NCBI GenBank assembly: GCA_038244585.1
Contig: JBBRTI010000003.1
Span: forward strand, 1 to 59,835
Origin: Candidatus Saccharimonadia bacterium
Lineage (GTDB): Bacteria; Patescibacteriota; Saccharimonadia; UBA4664
Reading direction: 5' to 3'
Length of the DNA: 59,835 nt
Position 1 is the stretch's first letter. Every line of letters begins with the position of its first letter. This document shows positions 23,082-32,167 of the stretch, piece by piece. Both the position numbers and the translations under genes were made by a program. Below the pieces are notes generated by a model. It was not told the DNA's origin, did not search any database, and saw only the letters and a list, made by a program, of their open reading frames with translations.

Positions 23082-25973
23082 TTAGGCCTTTACGACGTCG
23101 ATGGTCAGATTCATGCCGCCGAGGCGGACTGGAATCAGGTCCGGGTTGGCTCCGCCCGTTTTGAGCTCTGTCGCCAGGGTCTCGGCCATGATAGTCAGTT
23201 TGTGGGCGGTGATGGCCGCATCCAAATCATTACCCGGCTCGGCCTGCAGCGTCAAAACGATACGGTCGTCCACGTCCAGTCCCGCGCTCTTACGGGCGGA
23301 CTGAACCTGCCTGACGATGTCGCGCATCAGGCCTTCGGCTTTCAATTCCGGCGTGAGCGACGTATCCAGTTTGACTTTTCCCACCTTAATCCAGACCACC
23401 TCTTTGACGTTGACCTCGTCGCCGATAATAGAAGAGTAGGCTTGGTTGAGCGCCGGGACTTCAACGCTGGCCAGCGGCTGCCGCACCTTGATGCCGGCCT
23501 CAGCGCGCTGTGACAGCGCGGTATTGATGTAGTTGCGTGCTTGCTGCATCTCATCCAAGACGGCCTGATCAGCCTTCACTGCTTGGGGCCAATCACTCAA
23601 ATGGACGCTGACCGCCTCATCCATATCCTCGGTCAAACCACGCCACAGCTTATCCGCCACGAACGGGCTCCAGGGAGCCAACAGTTGTGCGATACGGCAC
23701 AACGAGTAATGCAGCGTAGCGTAGGCCGAGGCCTTGTCGCCGTCGTCTTCGCTCTTCCAGAACCGGCGGCGGCTGCGGCGGACATACCAGTTACTAAGGT
23801 CTTCGACCAGTGCGCGCAACGGACGCAGCGCCCGGGCCAGCTGATACTGATCGGCGGCCGCAGTCATCTCAATGATGGTCTCATCCAACCGGGCCAACAG
23901 CCACTGATCCAGCAGGTTGTCGCTGGCCGGCCGCTCCAGTTTACGCGTCGGCTCCCACTTGTCGATTTCGGCGTACATGCTCAGAAAGCTATAAGAGTTC
24001 CACAGCGTTCCGAAAACATTGCGCTGGATATCGCGCATGGCGTCGCGGGAAAAACGCATGTAGTCGGCGCCTACGGCCTGGTCGTTGCCCAAAAGATAAA
24101 ACCGCAGAGTATCGGCGCCTTCGATGGCAAAGACGTCCTCCACCGGCGGGTAGTTCTTGAGGCGTTTTGAGAGCTTCTGGCCGTCGGCTGCCATGACCAT
24201 GCCGTTGACGAGAACATTCTTATAGGCGGGGCGGTCAAAGACGATAGTGGAGAGGACGTGCTGGACATAGAACCACAAACGCGTCTGGTCCAGGCCCTCG
24301 CCGATGTAGTCGGCTGGGAAACTGGTCTCAAAGACTTCTTTATTCTCAAAGGGATAGTGCAGTTGTGCCGCCGGCATGGAGCCGGACTCGAACCAGCAGT
24401 CAAAGACCTCGTCGATGCGCTTGTAGGTCTTGCCATCGCGCTCAATTACCACATTGTCGATGCTGGGCCGGTGCAGATCTTCAGGCTTGACGTCCAGACC
24501 CGCGAGGTTTACGAGCTCGTCCAGGCTGCTCACGATAATGTTGTCATCGGGGTCGTCGATGTTGGACCAAATCGGCATGGGTGCGCCCCAGTAACGGTTG
24601 CGGCTGATAGCCCAGTCGCGGGCGCCTTCCAGCCACTTGCCGAAGCGGCCGTTCTTAATATTTGTCGGGCTCCAGGTGATTTCTTCGGCAGTTTTGAGCA
24701 TCTGCTCGCGGATAGCTGAAACCTTAACGAACCAGGTCGAGATGGCGTAGTACAGCAGCGGCGTTTCGCAGCGGTAGCAAAAGGGATAAGTATGGGTAAA
24801 GGTCTCGGCCAAGAACACCTTGCCCTGCTCGGACAAGTGTTCAATTATCAGGCGGTCGGCACTCTTGAAGAACTTATCGCGTACGTCCTCAAGCTCGACG
24901 TCATCAGTGATATGGCCGTTCGGTTTGACCGTGTTGAGTACCGGAATATCATGCTCCAGGCTCAGATTGAGGTCGTCCTCGCCGAAAGCAGGCGCCACGT
25001 GGAGCAAGCCGGAACCATCGTCTATAGAAACGATATTGGTGGCCCAGACCTTGAAGAGGTTCTTTTTGTTCTCCGTCTCAACGGCTGCCGACGGCTGCTT
25101 GAACAACGGTTCGTAGGCCTTACCTGCGAGCTCTGCGGCACTGACCTCTTTGATGACTTCGTATTCCGCCTTCAGCGACGCCAAGCGTGCCTTGGCCAGA
25201 ACCAGGGTTTCGGATGTGCCGTCGTCGTTTTTTACCGCGGCGTAAACGTAAGTAGCGTCCGGATTGACCGCCAGGGCGGCGTTTCCGGGCAAGCTCCATG
25301 GCGTCGTTGTCCAGCCCAACAGGCTGGCATCTTCATCGACTAATTTGAATTTCACATACAGGCTGGGGTCAGGCACGTCGTCCTTGTAGCCCTCGTTGAC
25401 CTCAAAGTTGGACAGCGGCGTCTCGCAGCGTGGACAGTACGGCATACTTTTGAAGCCGCGGTACAGCAGGCCTTTGGCGTTGACCTGGCCCAGCATCCAC
25501 CACACGCTCTCGGTATAATCGCGGTCGATGGTGGCGTAGGCGTGTTCCGTATCCGTCCAGCGGCCGGCGCGGCGGAAGAACTCTTCCCATTCGCCTTTGT
25601 ATTTAAAGACGCTGGCGCGGCAGGCGTCGTTGAACTTCTGCAACCCCAGCTCTAAGATCTGCTTCTTGCCGCTGACACCAAGTTGCTTCTCGATGGTGAA
25701 CTCAACGGGCAGGCCGTGACAGTCCCAACCGTTGCGGCGCTCCACGTAAAATCCCTGCATGGTCTTATAACGGCCCAAGGCGTCTTTGATACTCGTCACC
25801 AGGGTGTGGCCGAAATGAGGCTGGCCGTTGGCAAAAGGCGGGCCGTCGTAAAAGCTGAATCGCTTGGCGTTGGCCCGGCCCGCGAGGCTTTTGTTGAACG
25901 TGTCTTCATCGGCCCAGACGCGCAACATCTCGGCTTCGAATTCGGGGAAATTGGCTTGGGGGGCTTTCTTCAT
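23082..25973 (-). CDS. ileS: Isoleucyl-tRNA synthetase, type 2
   Basis: FYDGPPFANGQPHFGH, GWDCHGLPVE, WTTTPWSLPGN, DWAISRNRYWG, KLSKRLKNY. I placed the start at MKKAPQ, downstream of the T-box. Confidence 0.97.
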   Translation of the reverse strand: MKKAPQANFPEFEAEMLRVWADEDTFNKSLAGRANAKRFSFYDGPPFANGQPHFGHTLVTSIKDALGRYKTMQGFYVERRNGWDCHGLPVEFTIEKQLGVSGKKQILELGLQKFNDACRASVFKYKGEWEEFFRRAGRWTDTEHAYATIDRDYTESVWWMLGQVNAKGLLYRGFKSMPYCPRCETPLSNFEVNEGYKDDVPDPSLYVKFKLVDEDASLLGWTTTPWSLPGNAALAVNPDATYVYAAVKNDDGTSETLVLAKARLASLKAEYEVIKEVSAAELAGKAYEPLFKQPSAAVETENKKNLFKVWATNIVSIDDGSGLLHVAPAFGEDDLNLSLEHDIPVLNTVKPNGHITDDVELEDVRDKFFKSADRLIIEHLSEQGKVFLAETFTHTYPFCYRCETPLLYYAISTWFVKVSAIREQMLKTAEEITWSPTNIKNGRFGKWLEGARDWAISRNRYWGAPMPIWSNIDDPDDNIIVSSLDELVNLAGLDVKPEDLHRPSIDNVVIERDGKTYKRIDEVFDCWFESGSMPAAQLHYPFENKEVFETSFPADYIGEGLDQTRLWFYVQHVLSTIVFDRPAYKNVLVNGMVMAADGQKLSKRLKNYPPVEDVFAIEGADTLRFYLLGNDQAVGADYMRFSRDAMRDIQRNVFGTLWNSYSFLSMYAEIDKWEPTRKLERPASDNLLDQWLLARLDETIIEMTAAADQYQLARALRPLRALVEDLSNWYVRRSRRRFWKSEDDGDKASAYATLHYSLCRIAQLLAPWSPFVADKLWRGLTEDMDEAVSVHLSDWPQAVKADQAVLDEMQQARNYINTALSQRAEAGIKVRQPLASVEVPALNQAYSSIIGDEVNVKEVVWIKVGKVKLDTSLTPELKAEGLMRDIVRQVQSARKSAGLDVDDRIVLTLQAEPGNDLDAAITAHKLTIMAETLATELKTGGANPDLIPVRLGGMNLTIDVVKA

Positions 25974-25986
25974 GGTTGTCTCCGTA

Positions 25987-26190
25987 AATAAAAAATCCAT
26001 CTTGATCTGCAGGGACCGATAGCTCGGCGGTACCACCCTGCTTTCCAGATGGACACTTCGTTACAGCTGCTGTCGTGAGCCTTCAACGTCGGAGTCTAGT
26101 TTACGCGCGTGGCGCGATTTCTTTCCGCTGCTTCGCGGTTGATAGCCGCTAATCCGAAGATCCGGAACGCATTGCCAAGTTGTAGAGCCT
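25987..26190 (-). promoter_or_regulatory. T-box riboswitch with Ile (AUC) specifier
   Basis: AGCAGGGTGGTACCGC at 26025-26043, GAA-ATC specifier at 26116-26118, GCAGGG/CCCTGC and CCATCT/AGATGG terminator stems followed by ATTTTTTATTT. Lies directly upstream of ileS. Confidence 0.88.
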
Positions 26191-26204
26191 ATTATGAACC
26201 TAAA

Positions 26205-26465
26205 TTATACTCCGAGCAACTGATGAACCAGGTATTGGGCCAGCCGAAGTGCGAAAAAGGTTACCAGCGGTGCCAGGTCCAGTCCTGGCGTCTGCGGCAG
26301 CACACGTCGGAAAGGCATGACAACCGGTTCAGTCACGGCCACGAGGCTGGTGAAAAATCTGCCACCGGGTTGAACGATGTAGCTAGCGATGACCCGGACA
26401 ATCAATAGGAAGGTGAAAACTAAAACAAATAGATCCGTGAAGATCGAGGCAACAGTAACCAGCAC
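26205..26465 (-). CDS. yggT: YggT family membrane protein
   Basis: LIVRVIASY...VTEPV..P.RR.LP...GLDLAPLV. Confidence 0.9.
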   Translation of the reverse strand: MLVTVASIFTDLFVLVFTFLLIVRVIASYIVQPGGRFFTSLVAVTEPVVMPFRRVLPQTPGLDLAPLVTFFALRLAQYLVHQLLGV

Positions 26466-26728
26466 TACGCCCGATCCCGATACGCCAGGTCACCGACCGA
26501 CGGGAACCGGTCCTCCTCCGTCCATACTTCGAGCGCCCCGCCATCGTGGCTGGTCAGAATAATTGCCGGGCGAGCCAGAATATCGTAATCCGTGGCAACT
26601 GCGATACCACGAGGGGTATCCGCATCCACCAGCTCGAAATTAACCTTGGACTGTTCCAGCCTAGCACCCAAATCAGCCATCTTACGTTCCGCTGCCGTCG
26701 CCTTATTGAAGAGAAGATATACCGTCAT
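26465..26728 (-). CDS. Small thioredoxin-like-fold hypothetical protein (no CxxC)
   Basis: VDADTPRG...YDIL.RPAIIL...G. Coupled to yggT (TAGTG overlap). TATACT lies 7 nt upstream of the ATG. Confidence 0.7.
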   Translation of the reverse strand: MTVYLLFNKATAAERKMADLGARLEQSKVNFELVDADTPRGIAVATDYDILARPAIILTSHDGGALEVWTEEDRFPSVGDLAYRDRA

Positions 26729-26745
26729 TACATTGAGTATACAAC

Positions 26746-26795
26746 AAAAGAAAGGGGCCGGCCGCAGAGTACCCTAAGGTACCCCGCAGCCGGCC
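26746..26795 (-). terminator. nrdJ terminator
   Basis: Long GC-rich stem (GGCCGGC...GCCGGCC) followed by TTTCTTTT on the minus strand. Confidence 0.7.
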
Positions 26796-26814
26796 AGTGT
26801 GCGAACAGAATCGG

Positions 26815-29751
26815 TCAGGAACAACCTGAAGTCGTACCGCAGCCTTCGCAGGCGTGGCATGACCCGGAAGGCCGCATCTGTGTCCCGCAAAGCGGGCAGA
26901 TCGGTGCGTCCTGCGAGTAACCCTGCTGCTTAAGGATGTCGGCCGACGAGTGGATCTCGTCGCCTGCAACCTTGACAGAAGCCGTGCCAGCCGCACTTGT
27001 TGCCCGGGCGGCAGCAATGGTGACACTGCGCATATCCTCGACCAGTTCCGCCGCGAGCTCCTCGTCTGTCTCCTCCGGCGCCATATAGCTGCCGGTCTCG
27101 AGTTGACGCGTGCGCTCATCGGCGGTGTAGATACTGCTGGATGATCGAGTTTCGAAGTCCATGTAATCCAACGCCAGGCGCCGGAACACGTAGTCCATAA
27201 TGGACTGCGCCATCCTCACATCCTTGTCGTCCGTCGGTCCGGCCGGCTCGAAGCGGAGGTTGGTGAACTTGTCGACGAAGGTTTCGAGCGGCACCCCGTA
27301 TTGGAGGCCGATCGACACCGCGATGGAGAACGCATCCATGACGCCGCCCAGGGTGGACCCCTGCTTGCCGAACTTAAGGAAGAGCTCACCGAGGCGGCCG
27401 TCGGGATAGGTCCCGGCGGTGAGGTAGCCCTCGGCACCGCCCACAGCGAACGACGTCGTCTGCGACGCCCGACGCTTCGGGAGGCGGGTACGGACCGGCC
27501 GGTACTCGATGACCGGACCGGACTTTGCGGCGGCCGCATTTTTAGCGGTCGAGCCACCATCAGACAGCGGTTGTCCGACCTTGCAGGCGTCGCGGTAAAC
27601 CGCGAGTGCCTTCAGACCGAGCTTCCAGCCCTGCATGTAGACCTCGGCGATGTCTTCCACCGTCGCGGACTCAGGCAGGTTGACCGTCTTGGAGATGGCT
27701 CCGCTGATGAACGGCTGGGTTGCCGCCATCATCAGAACATGTCCCATAGCTTCGATAGAACGTGCACCCATGGCCGTGTCAAACACCTCGTAATGCTCCC
27801 GCTTGAGGCCGGGTGCATCGATGACATGACCCTTGTCGGCGATGTGCGCCACGATGGCTGCGGTCTCAACGACTGAGTATCCGAGCTGCTTCAGGGCCCG
27901 CGGAACCGTCTGGTTGACGATCTCCATGGAGCCGCCGCCCACCAACTTCTTGAACTTGACTAGCGAGAAGTCGGGCTCGATGCCCGTCGTGTCACAGTCC
28001 ATCATGAAGCCGATAGTCCCGGTGGGAGCCAGCACCGACGCTTGCGCGTTACGGTAACCGAACTGTACGCCGAGAGCATTACCATCGATCCACACCTGTT
28101 CGGCGAGCGCGGCCACATGGGCCGAGTCGTCATCCAGATGCTGGATGTTGGCGGTCGCTTCGGTGTGCAACGCCATTACGTCCTGGTGCGCAGCGCGGTT
28201 GATGGCATAGCCATCGTACGCCCCAACGACGCCAGCGAGTTCGGCACTGCGCTTGTAGGCGGAGGCCGTCATGAGACTAGTGACGCTGGCGGCCAACGCT
28301 CGGCCGCCATCAGAGTCGTAACCCTTGCCCAGCGCCATGAGGAGCGCACCGAGGTTGGCATAGCCGACACCGAGCTGGCGGTACCGCTTGGTGGTGTCAC
28401 GGATGGGTTCCGTCGGGAAGTCCCCGAAGGCGATGGAAATCTCCATCGCCGTCACCACAAGCTCTACGGCCTGGGCGAACAGCTCCGCGTTGAAGCGGTT
28501 ATCGTCGTCCAGGAACTTGAGCAGGTTGAGACTCGCCAGGTTGCAGGCGGAGTTGTCCAACGACATGTACTCGCTGCACGGGTTCGAGGCCGTGATGGGC
28601 CCTGTCGCCTTGTTGGTGTGCCACTTGTTGATAGTGTCGTTGTACTGGATTCCGGGATCGGCGCATTCCCAGGCGGCCTGCACGATCTTGCCGTACAGCT
28701 CGGCCGCGTTCACCTCGCCGATTATTGCGCCCGGATAGGGCTTGGACCGAGCCCGCAAGGGCGCCTGTCCGCCGGTCTCCACCAGTCCCATGAACTCATC
28801 GGTCACGCGAACCGAGTTGTTGGCGTTCTGGTACTGAACGCTCGGCGCGTCACGACCGTTGAGGTCCATGTCGTAACCCGCGTCACGCAGGGCGCGGATC
28901 TTGCCCTCTTCACGAGCCTTGGTCTCGACGAACTCCTCGATGTCGGGGTGGTCCACGTCCAGCACAACCATCTTGGCAGCGCGGCGGGTTGCCCCGCCGG
29001 AACTGATGGTGCCGGCCGAGGCGTCCGCCCCGCGCATGAAGCTCACCGGACCGGAGGCCGTGCCACCGGTGGAGAGCGTCTCCTTGGAACTGCGCAGACA
29101 GCTCAGGTTCACACCCGCGCCACTGCCGCCCTTGAAGATTAGACCCTCCTCCTTGTACCAGTTGAGGATCGAGTCCATGGTGTCATCGATGGCCAGGATG
29201 AAGCAGGCAGAAACCTGCTGCTCACGCCGAGCCGCGCCGACGTTGAACCACACCGGTGAGTTGAAGCTGAAGTACTGGTGAATCAGCATGTACTTCAGCT
29301 CGTGCTCGAAGATCTCGAGGTCGTCCGGGTGGATGTAGCCGTTGACGTCGGCCGCCGCCACATAGGTGTCGACGACGCGGTCGACGAGCTCACGGATACT
29401 GGTCTCACGACCAGGCTGCCCGACGGTGCCGCGGAAGTACTTGGTCACGACGATTGTCGCGGCGTTGACCGACCAGAAATCAGGCACCTCCACTCCGAGC
29501 TGCTCAAAGATGACCACGCCGGTCTTGTGGTTCTCCTGCTTGATGTCGCGGCTCTCCCAGTCGATCTCGTCGTATGGGTGGGCGCCGGGCACGGTGAACA
29601 GACGCTTGATGCGGAGGCGCTTGGACTCGTCATTGATGTTGGTGACGGGCAAGCCGTCCTGCTCGTCGCGCGAGCGCTGGAACTCCACGAGATCTCGAAT
29701 ACCTGTCTTGTCCAGGATAACCTGGCTTTCGACCATGATAGTCATGTGCAT
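26815..29751 (-). CDS. nrdJ: Class II (adenosylcobalamin-dependent) ribonucleotide reductase
   Basis: FNSPVWFN, SACFI, SGGATRRAAKM, QNANNSV, SNPCSEY, CNLASLN, APTGTI. C-terminal TSCPD-like domain and C..CG....SGSC..C..CG..SGCS. Confidence 0.96.
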   Translation of the reverse strand: MHMTIMVESQVILDKTGIRDLVEFQRSRDEQDGLPVTNINDESKRLRIKRLFTVPGAHPYDEIDWESRDIKQENHKTGVVIFEQLGVEVPDFWSVNAATIVVTKYFRGTVGQPGRETSIRELVDRVVDTYVAAADVNGYIHPDDLEIFEHELKYMLIHQYFSFNSPVWFNVGAARREQQVSACFILAIDDTMDSILNWYKEEGLIFKGGSGAGVNLSCLRSSKETLSTGGTASGPVSFMRGADASAGTISSGGATRRAAKMVVLDVDHPDIEEFVETKAREEGKIRALRDAGYDMDLNGRDAPSVQYQNANNSVRVTDEFMGLVETGGQAPLRARSKPYPGAIIGEVNAAELYGKIVQAAWECADPGIQYNDTINKWHTNKATGPITASNPCSEYMSLDNSACNLASLNLLKFLDDDNRFNAELFAQAVELVVTAMEISIAFGDFPTEPIRDTTKRYRQLGVGYANLGALLMALGKGYDSDGGRALAASVTSLMTASAYKRSAELAGVVGAYDGYAINRAAHQDVMALHTEATANIQHLDDDSAHVAALAEQVWIDGNALGVQFGYRNAQASVLAPTGTIGFMMDCDTTGIEPDFSLVKFKKLVGGGSMEIVNQTVPRALKQLGYSVVETAAIVAHIADKGHVIDAPGLKREHYEVFDTAMGARSIEAMGHVLMMAATQPFISGAISKTVNLPESATVEDIAEVYMQGWKLGLKALAVYRDACKVGQPLSDGGSTAKNAAAAKSGPVIEYRPVRTRLPKRRASQTTSFAVGGAEGYLTAGTYPDGRLGELFLKFGKQGSTLGGVMDAFSIAVSIGLQYGVPLETFVDKFTNLRFEPAGPTDDKDVRMAQSIMDYVFRRLALDYMDFETRSSSSIYTADERTRQLETGSYMAPEETDEELAAELVEDMRSVTIAAARATSAAGTASVKVAGDEIHSSADILKQQGYSQDAPICPLCGTQMRPSGSCHACEGCGTTSGCS

Positions 29752-29769
29752 TCACTCCCTCTCCTGCCT

Positions 29770-29871
29770 CGCGGCAGTGTTTAATTGCCGCGGGACAGTC
29801 TGATTGACTGTAGTTGGACCGCGGAAAGCGGGGCCCCTACACCCTCCATAGGGTCCCCAATTTCCGCGGTC
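29770..29871 (-). other. Structured nrdJ 5' leader (three stem-loops)
   Basis: GACCGCGGAAA/TTTCCGCGGTC enclosing GGGGCCCCTA/TAGGGTCCCC, then CAGTC/GACTG and CGCGGCA/TGCCGCG. Confidence 0.55.
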
Positions 29872-29996
29872 AACCATCAGGACAGCGAGTGTGGTGATAG
29901 TTTCGAACTTTTGCTGTCAAAATACGATCTGATCCGCTAGGAACCAGTCCGGAGGCACAACCTGCCTATACCCCCGGACCGATTACCGGCCATTGT

Positions 29997-30455
29997 CTAT
30001 ATTATGCGTGTCTTGAGCCGCTGGAGCTCCGCTTCAAAACTGGCGACGTCGGTAAAGCTACGGTAAACGCTGGCGAAGCGGACGTAAGCGACGTCATCGA
30101 GGGCAGCCAGCTTCTTCATAACCATCTCGCCAATCTTGGTGCTGGCGATTTCGGCTTCGCCGGAGGCGCGCACTTCTCGTTCGATTTGAGAGATGAGCTC
30201 TTCTATATGCGCTATTGCAATGGGCCGCTTTTCGACGGCGCGGTAGATGCCGGAGGCGACTTTGCTGCGCGCGAACAACTCGCGCCGATTGTCCTTTTTG
30301 ATGACGGCGATGGTTGGCATCTCCATCCGCTCGTAGGTTGTGAAACGCGCACCACACCTCAGACACTGACGGCGACGGCGGATTGTGGACGAATCGTCAA
30401 CGTCCCTAGATTCCACGACTTTCGAGTCGATGTAATCACAGTCAAAACATTTCAT
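29997..30455 (-). CDS. nrdR: Transcriptional repressor NrdR
   Basis: MKCFDC..DSKVVESR..IRRRRQC..C..RFTTYER, ATP cone, LD.VAYVRFASVYR.F. AGGAGG SD before the ATG at 30455. Confidence 0.96.
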   Translation of the reverse strand: MKCFDCDYIDSKVVESRDVDDSSTIRRRRQCLRCGARFTTYERMEMPTIAVIKKDNRRELFARSKVASGIYRAVEKRPIAIAHIEELISQIEREVRASGEAEIASTKIGEMVMKKLAALDDVAYVRFASVYRSFTDVASFEAELQRLKTRII

Positions 30456-30479
30456 TTTTACCACCCTCCTGTCTGACGC

Positions 30480-30495
30480 ACCCCATATATGGTGT
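30480..30495. promoter_or_regulatory. NrdR box
   Basis: ACCCCATATATGGTGT fits the acaCwAtATaTwGtgt consensus. Confidence 0.75.
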
Positions 30496-30599
30496 GTCGT
30501 GCTTCCTAGTATAACGCTAGGCTTGCATGGATCGTCAACTGTTTTATTTCTTCCCCTAGCCAAGCCATAAAACTATGAATATGAGCAATATTAAATTAC

Positions 30600-30608
30600 T
30601 TTTCCACA
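30600..30608 (+). promoter_or_regulatory. DnaA box
   Basis: TTTTCCACA, adjacent to the second NrdR box. Confidence 0.5.
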
Positions 30609-30614
30609 GTTTAA

Positions 30615-30630
30615 ACACAATATGTAGCGT
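30615..30630. promoter_or_regulatory. NrdR box
   Basis: ACACAATATGTAGCGT fits the consensus. Confidence 0.75.
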
Positions 30631-30676
30631 CTGCCGAACAGTTGGCAACGCTAAAACATGGTTGTTTCCAGACGAC

Positions 30677-30705
30677 AAAAAAAGACCCAGTGGTTCTGGG
30701 TCTTT
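30677..30705 (-). terminator. ftsZ terminator
   Basis: AAAGACCCAG/CTGGGTCTTT stem with a T run. Confidence 0.85.
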
Positions 30706-30721
30706 CTAAGTTGGCGATTGA

Positions 30722-32167
30722 CTACTCGACTTTGCGGCGAATGAACGCCGGAACATCCAGATCATCGTCATCAATGCCAAGGTCGGCCAAAGGCAGTTTG
30801 CGGGCGAAACTGGCTTCCGGCTCATCGAAGGCAGGAAGAACCGGTTCGTCATCCTCGCTATGGTGTGCCTTGTGTGGGGCAGCGTGGAGTGGGCGCTTGG
30901 CCTGGTGAGCCCGATCATTGTCATCCGGCTCAATTGAGGCCAGTGGTTGGAACCGGCGCGGCGGGACGGCGGATTCCGGCTCATGCGCTGGAAAAACGAC
31001 ATCCGGTTCGGGTTCCGTCTGCGGCCGCTCATTAATGAAGGGCTGGCGTACCGTCGGTACGACGGCAGGACGAGGAAAAATCGGCTGTGGTTCCGGCTCA
31101 GATTCCGGTTCAAGTTCCTCCTCGAGCTCCGGCTGCTGCCTGGAAATGACTACCGGCGTACCTGCAGCCTGCTCCGATCGGTTGGAGTGAAACTGCCCGC
31201 GCAGTTCTTTGGGCGTATTATCAAAGCCGGTCGCGACGACGGTGATCAGAATGTCGTCTTCCAGGCTGTCGTCAAGGACAGCACCGAAGATGATGTTGGC
31301 CTCAGGGTCGACGGCATCGGTGACAGTCTTAGCCGCTTCGTCGATTTCATGCATTGTCATATTGCGGCCGCCGGTAATGTTGAACAGGACACCGCGCGCG
31401 CCTTCGATACTGGTTTCGAGCAACGGACTGTCGATGGCCTGGCGGGCCGCTTCGACGGCGCGGTTGTCGCCCTTGGCCCGGCCAATGCCCATCAGGGCGG
31501 AACCAGCATTACTCATGATGGCCTTGACGTCGGCGAAGTCCAGATTAATCAGACCGTGGATGGTAATAAGGTTACTGATCCCCTGAACACCCTGCTGGAG
31601 GACTTCATCCACGATACCAAAGGCATCAACCAGTGAAGTCTTACGGTCGATCATCTGAAGTAGCCGGTCGTTTGGAATTGTGATCAATGTGTCTACATTG
31701 TCCTTAAGTTCCCGGATGCCGGCTTCAGCGCTGCGCCGGCGGCGTTCGCCTTCAAAGGTGAACGGCTTGGTTACGATACCGACGACCAGGGCTCCGGCTT
31801 CTCTGGCCGCGGCCGCTATATATGGTGCGGATCCGGTACCGGTGCCGCCGCCTTCACCAAGGGTAATAAAGACCATGTCGGCGCCTTTGACGGCCTCGTA
31901 TATTTCCTGTTCGCTTTCCTCAGCGGCCTTGCGACCGACCTCCGGATCCGCCCCAGCACCGAGTCCGCGAGTCGTCTCGCGACCGATATGAATTTTACTG
32001 GGAGCCTTAGCATGCACCAGAGCCTGAGCATCGGTATTGATTACCGAAAATTCCACACCTTGCATTTTTGCATCGATCATGCGGTTGATGGCCGATCCGC
32101 CACCGCCGCCTATGCCTATAACTTTGATCCGGGCCGATGTGTCGACCTCGGGCAGTATCTCTGCCAT
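30722..32167 (-). CDS. ftsZ: Cell division protein FtsZ
   Basis: [36 protein letters not shown]-terminal [17 protein letters not shown] upstream of the ATG at 32167. Confidence 0.98.

Follow-up and report, generated by a model that had tools for sequence, protein, structure and literature searches.

Probable in-place replacement of nrdJ by an actinobacterial homologue in a conserved nrdR-nrdJ operon of Saccharimonadia

How did a member of the Saccharimonadia come to carry an actinobacterial ribonucleotide reductase (RNR), and what, if anything, came along with the gene? The question is raised by nrdJ, the gene for a class II, adenosylcobalamin (AdoCbl)-dependent RNR on a stretch of 59,835 nt (hereafter the window; contig JBBRTI010000003.1 of assembly GCA_038244585.1, positions 1 to 59,835). 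As contig C3, the window is part of a metagenome-assembled genome (MAG) of 828 kb (0.83 Mb) in 58 contigs that is 94% complete and has an estimated contamination of 2.75% and a GC content of 55.6%. An original prediction, made from the letters of the window alone, had proposed that a foreign nrdJ was acquired here from an actinobacterial host lineage. The foreign gene is upheld by our analysis, though as the product of a replacement in place and not of a new insertion: we give a probability of roughly 85% to the explanation that the ancestral nrdJ of a conserved nrdR-nrdJ operon was exchanged as a single gene, with an actinomycete as the donor and with the local control elements retained.

The ORF (open reading frame) of nrdJ is intact and encodes 978 aa with the Pfam domains Ribonuc_red_2_N, Ribonuc_red_lgC (the RNR barrel) and TSCPD (PF12637, residues 773-861) as well as a C-terminal, Cys-rich and zinc-ribbon-like tail (CPLCG...CHACEGCG...GCS). 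The NCBIfam model NF005122/PRK06556 ("vitamin B12-dependent ribonucleotide reductase") matches residues 38-978 with 1447 bits (cut-off, 859 bits) and TIGR02504 scores 580 bits (cut-off, 400 bits), while the active-site motifs SAC183F, N390-P-C392-S-E394 and AC403NL line up with those of the solved NrdJ 7b9q. Given this family score, the aligned motifs and the Cys-rich tail, the gene looks like that of a functional class II enzyme. Its start codon is likely the ATG at 29745 (ATGACT), which matches the aligned starts of the relatives' genes. No other class I or class II alpha subunit, NrdD or RTPR was found in the genome, in which the R2 subunit was not searched for, and as judged from this 94%-complete MAG NrdJ is the sole RNR of the organism.

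A protein search with NrdJ returned a single match at 80% identity followed by about 120 matches at 69-72%, every named one of which belongs to a genus of Micrococcales (Terrabacter, Intrasporangium, Janibacter, Ornithinimicrobium and others). All 80 of the 80 genome loci that were kept come from Actinomycetota and encode NrdJ proteins 64-73% identical to that of the window. Together with its sister from a metagenome (P0002, 82% identical), the window's NrdJ branched inside a Micrococcales group in a FastTree of 117 rows (support 98) and in a quick IQ-TREE run of 77 rows under LG+C20 (support 100), and the careful IQ-TREE run of 47 rows placed the pair in a 14-row clade of Intrasporangiaceae, Dermacoccaceae and Ornithinimicrobiaceae (UFBoot/SH-aLRT 100/100), families that GTDB places in Dermatophilaceae. 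This clade is itself nested among other Actinomycetes, and the NrdJ tree broadly follows taxonomy there. Saccharimonadia do have PRK06556-like NrdJ proteins (143 of 401 sampled genomes and 114 of 186 genera), which are about 50-55% identical to that of the window; Actinobacteria as a whole exclude the broad clade of Saccharimonadia (100/100), whose genes stand directly behind nrdR in 28 of the 31 loci examined. Monophyly was rejected by approximately unbiased (AU) tests both for the Saccharimonadia rows as a whole (delta lnL 90.7, p=0.0067) and for the six rows from the window's family (delta lnL 94.4, p=0.0018). The predicted actinobacterial origin of NrdJ is thus borne out, and neither the trees nor the AU tests returned the branching within a broad clade of CPR (candidate phyla radiation) bacteria that would have spoken for native descent.

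Some Saccharimonadia NrdJ proteins lie apart from these groups. Those of seven genomes in families f13 and f14 (G054, G059, G064, G068, G071, G074 and G080) match the window's at 58-59% identity, but only across residues 45-735, and they may form a further clade or have a divergent C-terminus. In family f17, two loci without an upstream nrdR (L096 and L097, from G343 and G189) encode NrdJ proteins of 61-63% identity that are sister to all sampled Actinobacteria and are not grouped with the broad Saccharimonadia clade.

The gene order around nrdJ, all on one strand, is ftsA-ftsZ-nrdR-nrdJ-orf87-yggT-ileS-rodA, and the same order from ftsA through rodA is found in an independent assembly that was made from a different sample (ENA ERZ27280937, contig k119_269268; locus L145). 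Compared with the window, NrdJ is 82%, NrdR 94%, IleRS 86% and MAP 85% identical in L145, and the junction sequences are the same, so that both junctions are reproduced and a misassembly at either of them, the other outcome that would have spoken against a transfer, was not found. In its flanks, L145 is nearer to a genome of the same genus, G001, than to the window (FtsA 97%, FtsZ 94%). G001, which is represented at the RNR locus by two identical contigs (L148 and L149), is also close to the window in these flanks (FtsA 93%, FtsZ 82%, NrdR 93%, orf87 85%, IleRS 85-87%), but the slot between its nrdR and orf87 holds a PRK08665-like NrdJ of 921-924 aa that is only 25% identical to the window's. 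Another close relative, L150 (JGI 3300015194), has an RTPR-type monomeric class II reductase in the slot. Contigs of this kind also occur in the samples ENA ERZ27248559 and JGI 3300012005. Among these four loci the flanks are 82-97% identical (FtsA 91-97%) and the spacer from nrdR to the RNR gene is homologous throughout, as far as the ATGAC at the start codon; homology resumes about 20-45 nt past the stop codon at a common terminator hairpin. The pair orf87-yggT lies downstream of the RNR gene in L145, G001/L148, G012, G010 and G002, whatever the type of RNR. The slot thus contains three kinds of RNR in the genus-level group and at least four in the order; the flanks follow species relationships and the slot gene does not, which is the pattern of xenologous gene displacement.

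From this pattern we infer the direction and the route of the transfer as follows. In the ancestor of the window species and the L145 organism, the coding sequence of a resident class II RNR would have been replaced by an actinomycete nrdJ from a donor related to Intrasporangiaceae, Dermacoccaceae and Ornithinimicrobiaceae (Micrococcales), which may conceivably have been a host. The exchange would have been confined to the ORF plus no more than about 20-45 nt on its 3' side, and the resident nrdR, the TTGACA hexamer, the roughly 115-nt leader, the terminator hairpin and orf87-yggT-ileS would all have been kept. Because promoter-like site, leader and terminator are retained, the foreign enzyme would be expressed from resident control elements, in what would be the ancestral arrangement of the class, an nrdR-nrdJ operon. 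The swap appears to predate the split of the two species; either the actinobacterial allele was ancestral and G001 and L150 lost it to a later displacement, or related organisms pass alleles among each other via the conserved flanks, presumably by homologous recombination.

The resident regulator did not arrive together with nrdJ. Of the 80 actinobacterial loci, 78 have an nrdR immediately upstream of nrdJ, and the encoded proteins are 36-46% identical to the window's NrdR, whereas identity to Saccharimonadia NrdR is graded with distance from 93% in the same genus over 77-80% in the family and 62-71% in the order to 48-60% in the class. These identities led us to reject a co-transfer of nrdR with nrdJ and indicate that the donor's operon partner was not kept. 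All named relatives of FtsZ and NrdR are labeled Candidatus Saccharimonadia, Saccharimonadales, Saccharibacteria or Patescibacteria, and the genome has FtsA, which is generally missing from Actinobacteria. NrdR boxes are palindromes of 16 bp that usually come in tandem in the promoter of the RNR gene under control. The window has no more than two box-like sites, both upstream of nrdR (2-3 mismatches, 135 bp apart; Table 1); a similar site is present close to the first of these positions in L145 and close to the second in G001. The immediate control of nrdJ would seem to lie with a promoter-like site of the resident locus and with the structured leader, not with an NrdR box. The genome (G000) encodes a second, divergent NrdR paralogue of 148 aa and about 30% identity (contig C1:51870-52316, equivalent to L124:6871-7317, minus strand) with Zn-ribbon and ATP-cone, which lies beside the genes for ribosomal protein L25 and an adenylate-kinase-like protein with no RNR gene adjoining; such a paralogue is also present in G002, G007, G010 and G012.

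The 245-nt spacer between nrdR and nrdJ (29752-29996) contains several GC-rich hairpins. A TTGACA or TTGAAA is found at the position equivalent to the window's candidate promoter hexamer in 11 aligned leaders of the order. The leader behind it is predicted to form a long hairpin P1 (29817-29871) with the apical loop UGGAGGGUG, a second hairpin P2 (29795-29811) and two overlapping elements, P3 (29770-29792) and P4 (29764-29777), ahead of the Shine-Dalgarno region (29755-29764), which fold prediction shows as paired for the window and for several, not all, relatives. Its fold is far stabler than those of shuffled sequences (z -6.6; relatives, -3.8 to -11.6), and P1 shows covariation: 89.5% of cells are paired compared to 36-51% for slid controls, 19 of 26 pairs are double-changed, and none of 500 shuffles reaches the observed values. 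A covariance model of P1 gave one match per genome in 16 of the 401 genomes of the class, all of them in the window's order, and the match adjoins a located RNR gene, of one or another of several kinds, in 13 of these 16 (G008, G014 and G036 were not placed). The leader is present in the window and in L145, L120, L150, L121-L123 and L142, whichever class II RNR comes behind, and it is absent from the actinobacterial loci. Since no Rfam model, cobalamin riboswitches included, matches positions 25800-30800 at E<=1, we regard the leader as a candidate new RNA, probably a resident cis-regulatory element. At the other end of the gene, the terminator hairpin is common to L145 and to G001 with its other RNR and marks the 3' edge of the swapped segment. 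The GC-rich flanking hairpins that the original prediction had noticed are real structures (z -5.5 for the terminator and z -6.6 for the leader) that are resident at this locus, and we rejected them as marks of an imported fragment because relatives carrying other RNRs share them.

Base composition fared similarly. At a GC content of 0.622 and a GC content at third codon positions (GC3) of 0.806, with average GC1 and GC2, nrdJ stands out from the genome's 609 long ORFs (mean GC 0.565; mean GC3 0.655, standard deviation 0.074): its GC3 is at the 98.5th percentile (z=2.0) and ranks third among the 195 ORFs of at least 400 aa. The bias that had been noticed by eye is thus real, yet it is not diagnostic of a transfer. 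Native nrdJ genes of the window's order, in loci of 58-62% GC, have a GC3 of 0.87-0.90, G001's different nrdJ has 0.76, the donor group has 0.92-0.97, and other genes at the top of the GC3 range in this genome include those for ATP synthase beta, FtsH and LepA. We dropped GC3 as a sign of import on the grounds that native nrdJ genes of the same order are high as well, as are the other genes just named; high GC3 more likely tracks the class of gene than its origin.

Table 1. Positions of the features discussed. Unprefixed coordinates refer to the window; others are given as locus or genome and contig.
Feature	Position	Strand	Remarks
nrdJ, class II AdoCbl-dependent ribonucleotide reductase, probable actinobacterial (Micrococcales) origin	26815..29751	(-)	family models, phylogeny
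nrdR, 152 aa from ATG at 30455, resident, vertically inherited	29997..30455	(-)	
orf87, 87 aa, no family match	26465-26728	(-)	
yggT	26205-26465	(-)	
Resident terminator hairpin, 18-bp stem (13 GC pairs) and T-run	26756..26795	(-)	z -5.5
Hairpins directly after nrdR stop (29944-29980) and terminator-like site (29929-29947)	29929..29980	(-)	kept in L145, G001, L150
TTGACA -35-like hexamer, candidate nrdJ promoter	29915..29920	(-)	TTGACA or TTGAAA in 11 aligned leaders
Resident structured 5' leader	29755..29871	(-)	
Two NrdR-box-like sites upstream of nrdR	30480-30495, 30615-30630		13-14/16 matches to ACACWATATATWGTGT
Slot RNRs other than actinobacterial NrdJ	L150:9427-10605; L148/L149:9430-12195; L120:10583-13357		
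CobA/BtuR-type adenosyltransferase	G005:C2:516880-517401; G003:C4:18405-18926; G008:C3:15460-15981; G002:C5:10420-10941		

Several observations weigh against a replacement in place by an actinomycete gene, or at least against parts of that explanation. Even the closest actinobacterial NrdJ proteins reach no more than 70-73% identity, and a long stem (0.85 substitutions per site) leads to the window clade, so that the true donor would be unsampled or the transfer would be old. The groups compared in the AU tests were chosen after the first tree had been seen, and the deep root of the NrdJ tree is not fixed, as the distant representatives (intein-free sequences from a 50% cluster library), with branch lengths of 4-6 substitutions per site, were dropped from it; the broad Saccharimonadia clade might itself go back to an old exchange with Actinobacteria. 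The search for an NrdR box in the nrdR-nrdJ spacer, with up to 3 mismatches allowed, gave none; control of nrdJ by NrdR through co-transcription is plausible but only presumed, and of the predicted placement of nrdJ under a resident NrdR it is the residency of the regulator that stands, not a box between the two genes. Finally, the absence of adenosyltransferase and other genes is that from a MAG of 94% completeness; no PduO-type adenosyltransferase was detected in it or in 12 relatives.

Among the alternatives, an indirect route has the most in its favor. The actinobacterial nrdJ could have arrived in some other Saccharimonadia lineage first and have reached the genus from such an epibiont by natural transformation and homologous recombination through the leader and terminator flanks, and this would sit well with flanks that are conserved across the order and breakpoints that fall exactly at their edges, with the alternation of three RNR types among organisms whose FtsA is 91-97% identical, with the closeness of L145 to G001 (which has another RNR) rather than to the window, and with the long stem branch. 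However, in none of the sampled trees does another Saccharimonadia sequence branch off between the clades of the window and of the Micrococcales, and the identity of NrdJ between the window and L145 resembles that of IleRS and MAP, as would fit vertical descent since their split. We therefore consider such a detour unlikely, though worth keeping in mind next to the direct transfer from an actinomycete.

It is far less probable that the gene traveled in the opposite direction, from Saccharimonadia to Micrococcales, or that a phage or plasmid carried it. The window clade lies several nodes deep among Actinomycetes with an NrdJ tree that broadly follows taxonomy, which argues against a reverse transfer. 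RNR genes are common in phages (PMC3653736), and 1350 phage records gave a match, but the best phage NrdJ has 43% identity with the window's. In the plasmid collection, only megabase-size replicons of Streptomyces and Nonomuraea, as large as chromosomes, match above 60%, and a close copy is found on no true plasmid. Neither an integrase nor a transposase was found in the flanks of nrdJ, and we dropped the idea of such a vector on the basis of the phage and plasmid identities.

Vertical inheritance of a native nrdJ, with its actinobacterial likeness due to slow evolution or to convergence in composition in a high-GC member of the CPR, is scarcely tenable even though the NrdJ native to Saccharimonadia is likewise of the PRK06556-like subfamily, is encoded in the same operon, and the genome is GC-rich for a CPR bacterium: both AU tests reject it, NrdJ is nested with full support in one actinobacterial family group, NrdR and FtsZ follow species relationships where NrdJ does not, and a genome of the same genus has an RNR of only 25% identity in the slot. 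A chimeric contig or actinobacterial contamination, as one might suspect from a 58-contig MAG with some estimated contamination and an nrdJ richer in GC than its neighbors, can be dismissed with near certainty given the same order and junctions around an 82%-identical NrdJ in the independent assembly, a GC3 of 0.81 compared to 0.92-0.97 in the donor group, and the fact that this NrdJ is the only RNR of the genome.

The replacement of nrdJ by an actinomycete homologue would not be an isolated event at this position. As far as the sequences go, the slot is a replacement hot spot, occupied in other genera of the family by actinobacterial NrdJs that differ in ancestry: those of G012 and G002 branch with Nanopelagicales (98/95), and those of G010 and G007 lie near Pseudonocardiales/Mycobacteriales, with weak support. 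Going further, one may tentatively envisage a dedicated swap slot in which at least four kinds of class II RNR are exchanged with start-codon precision behind a fixed leader module, by competence and recombination among epibionts, a scenario that we hold to be somewhat less than evenly likely. The leader might then adopt a three-way-junction fold and possibly act as a riboswitch for a corrinoid or a nucleotide, and the alleles could stem from Micrococcales in the window, whereas Nanopelagicales-like donors would account for those of G012/G002 and a further lineage for those of G010/G007. If this were true, the swapped alleles could record past hosts or neighbors of each lineage.

Of the neighboring genes, orf87 is kept directly 3' of the RNR slot across the family at 36-85% identity. 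A T-box-like motif, AGGGTGGTACCGCC, lies inside a hairpin just 5' of ileS (about 26030-26045, minus strand), though no Rfam match to a T-box was obtained upstream of ileS at E<=1. The GTG at 26036 that is listed as the start of ileS probably lies too far upstream.

What does the swap mean for the organism's demand for vitamin B12? Every RNR seen in the slot and in the order is of class II, and NrdD was not found in the order; dependence on B12 would therefore be older than the transfer. Enzymes of the CobA/BtuR type are absent from the window genome as well as from G001 and G007. With NrdJ as the sole RNR, it is a reasonable inference that the synthesis of deoxynucleoside triphosphates depends on imported corrinoid and may need AdoCbl itself. 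The predicted dependence on scavenged B12 accordingly finds support in the class of the only RNR and in the lack of detected PduO and CobA, with the amendment that it was not brought by the transfer. Five relatives encode a CobA/BtuR-type enzyme at a distance of 1-2 kb from the gene for a third NrdJ variety ('type B'), and in a sixth it lies elsewhere (Table 1).

The arrangement can be compared to several known systems. An nrdR-nrdJ operon has reportedly been described for Streptomyces coelicolor by Borovok and colleagues in 2004 and by Grinberg and colleagues in 2006. The locus of the window resembles such actinomycete operons in an NrdJ of the NF005122/PRK06556 subfamily with about 960 aa, TSCPD and Cys-rich tail, in 64-73% identity, and in the upstream position of nrdR; unlike there, only nrdJ is actinobacterial here, NrdR is the recipient's own, and the spacer carries a Saccharimonadia-specific leader. 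In situ displacement within conserved operons is said to have been recognized by Omelchenko and colleagues in 2003 in Genome Biol, and the likeness is that a gene of an operon is swapped for a distant homologue of the same function while flanks and regulator remain. Our case differs from it in the repetition at one slot and in the breakpoints at start codon and terminator. The term xenologous gene displacement is used in PMC1274311.

Mammal-associated Saccharibacteria have acquired class III nrdD independently from Firmicutes, Proteobacteria and Elusimicrobia, which was linked to anaerobic niches, and an AdoCbl-dependent RNR was noted in genomes of environmental Saccharibacteria (McLean et al. 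2020, PMC7427843). In both cases Saccharibacteria obtained RNR genes from several foreign sources, but the locus described here concerns a class II enzyme exchanged for another, from an actinobacterial donor and in place, in an order without a detected NrdD. Horizontal transfer of RNR genes is pervasive and makes RNR phylogeny conflict with organismal phylogeny (Lundin et al. 2010, PMC3019208); to this, the window adds a specific instance in the CPR with mapped junctions and retained regulatory elements. We found no paper that joins the CPR with NrdJ, the nearest being the NrdD transfer of PMC7427843. Given the known transfer of RNR genes and the associations of Saccharibacteria with Actinobacteria, the transfer itself is not surprising.

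Its significance would rather lie in the picture of an essential, sole RNR that has been replaced repeatedly by foreign versions under continued local control, that is, of a fixed regulator and an exchangeable catalyst. The hard dependence on external corrinoid, perhaps on AdoCbl itself, would be older than the transfer, and as a side result there is a candidate for a new leader RNA, which lends itself to probing for a ligand. The phylogeny of the donors, finally, might prove to be a tracer of the hosts or neighbors of these bacteria, and in the present case it would point to Micrococcales of the Intrasporangiaceae/Dermacoccaceae type.

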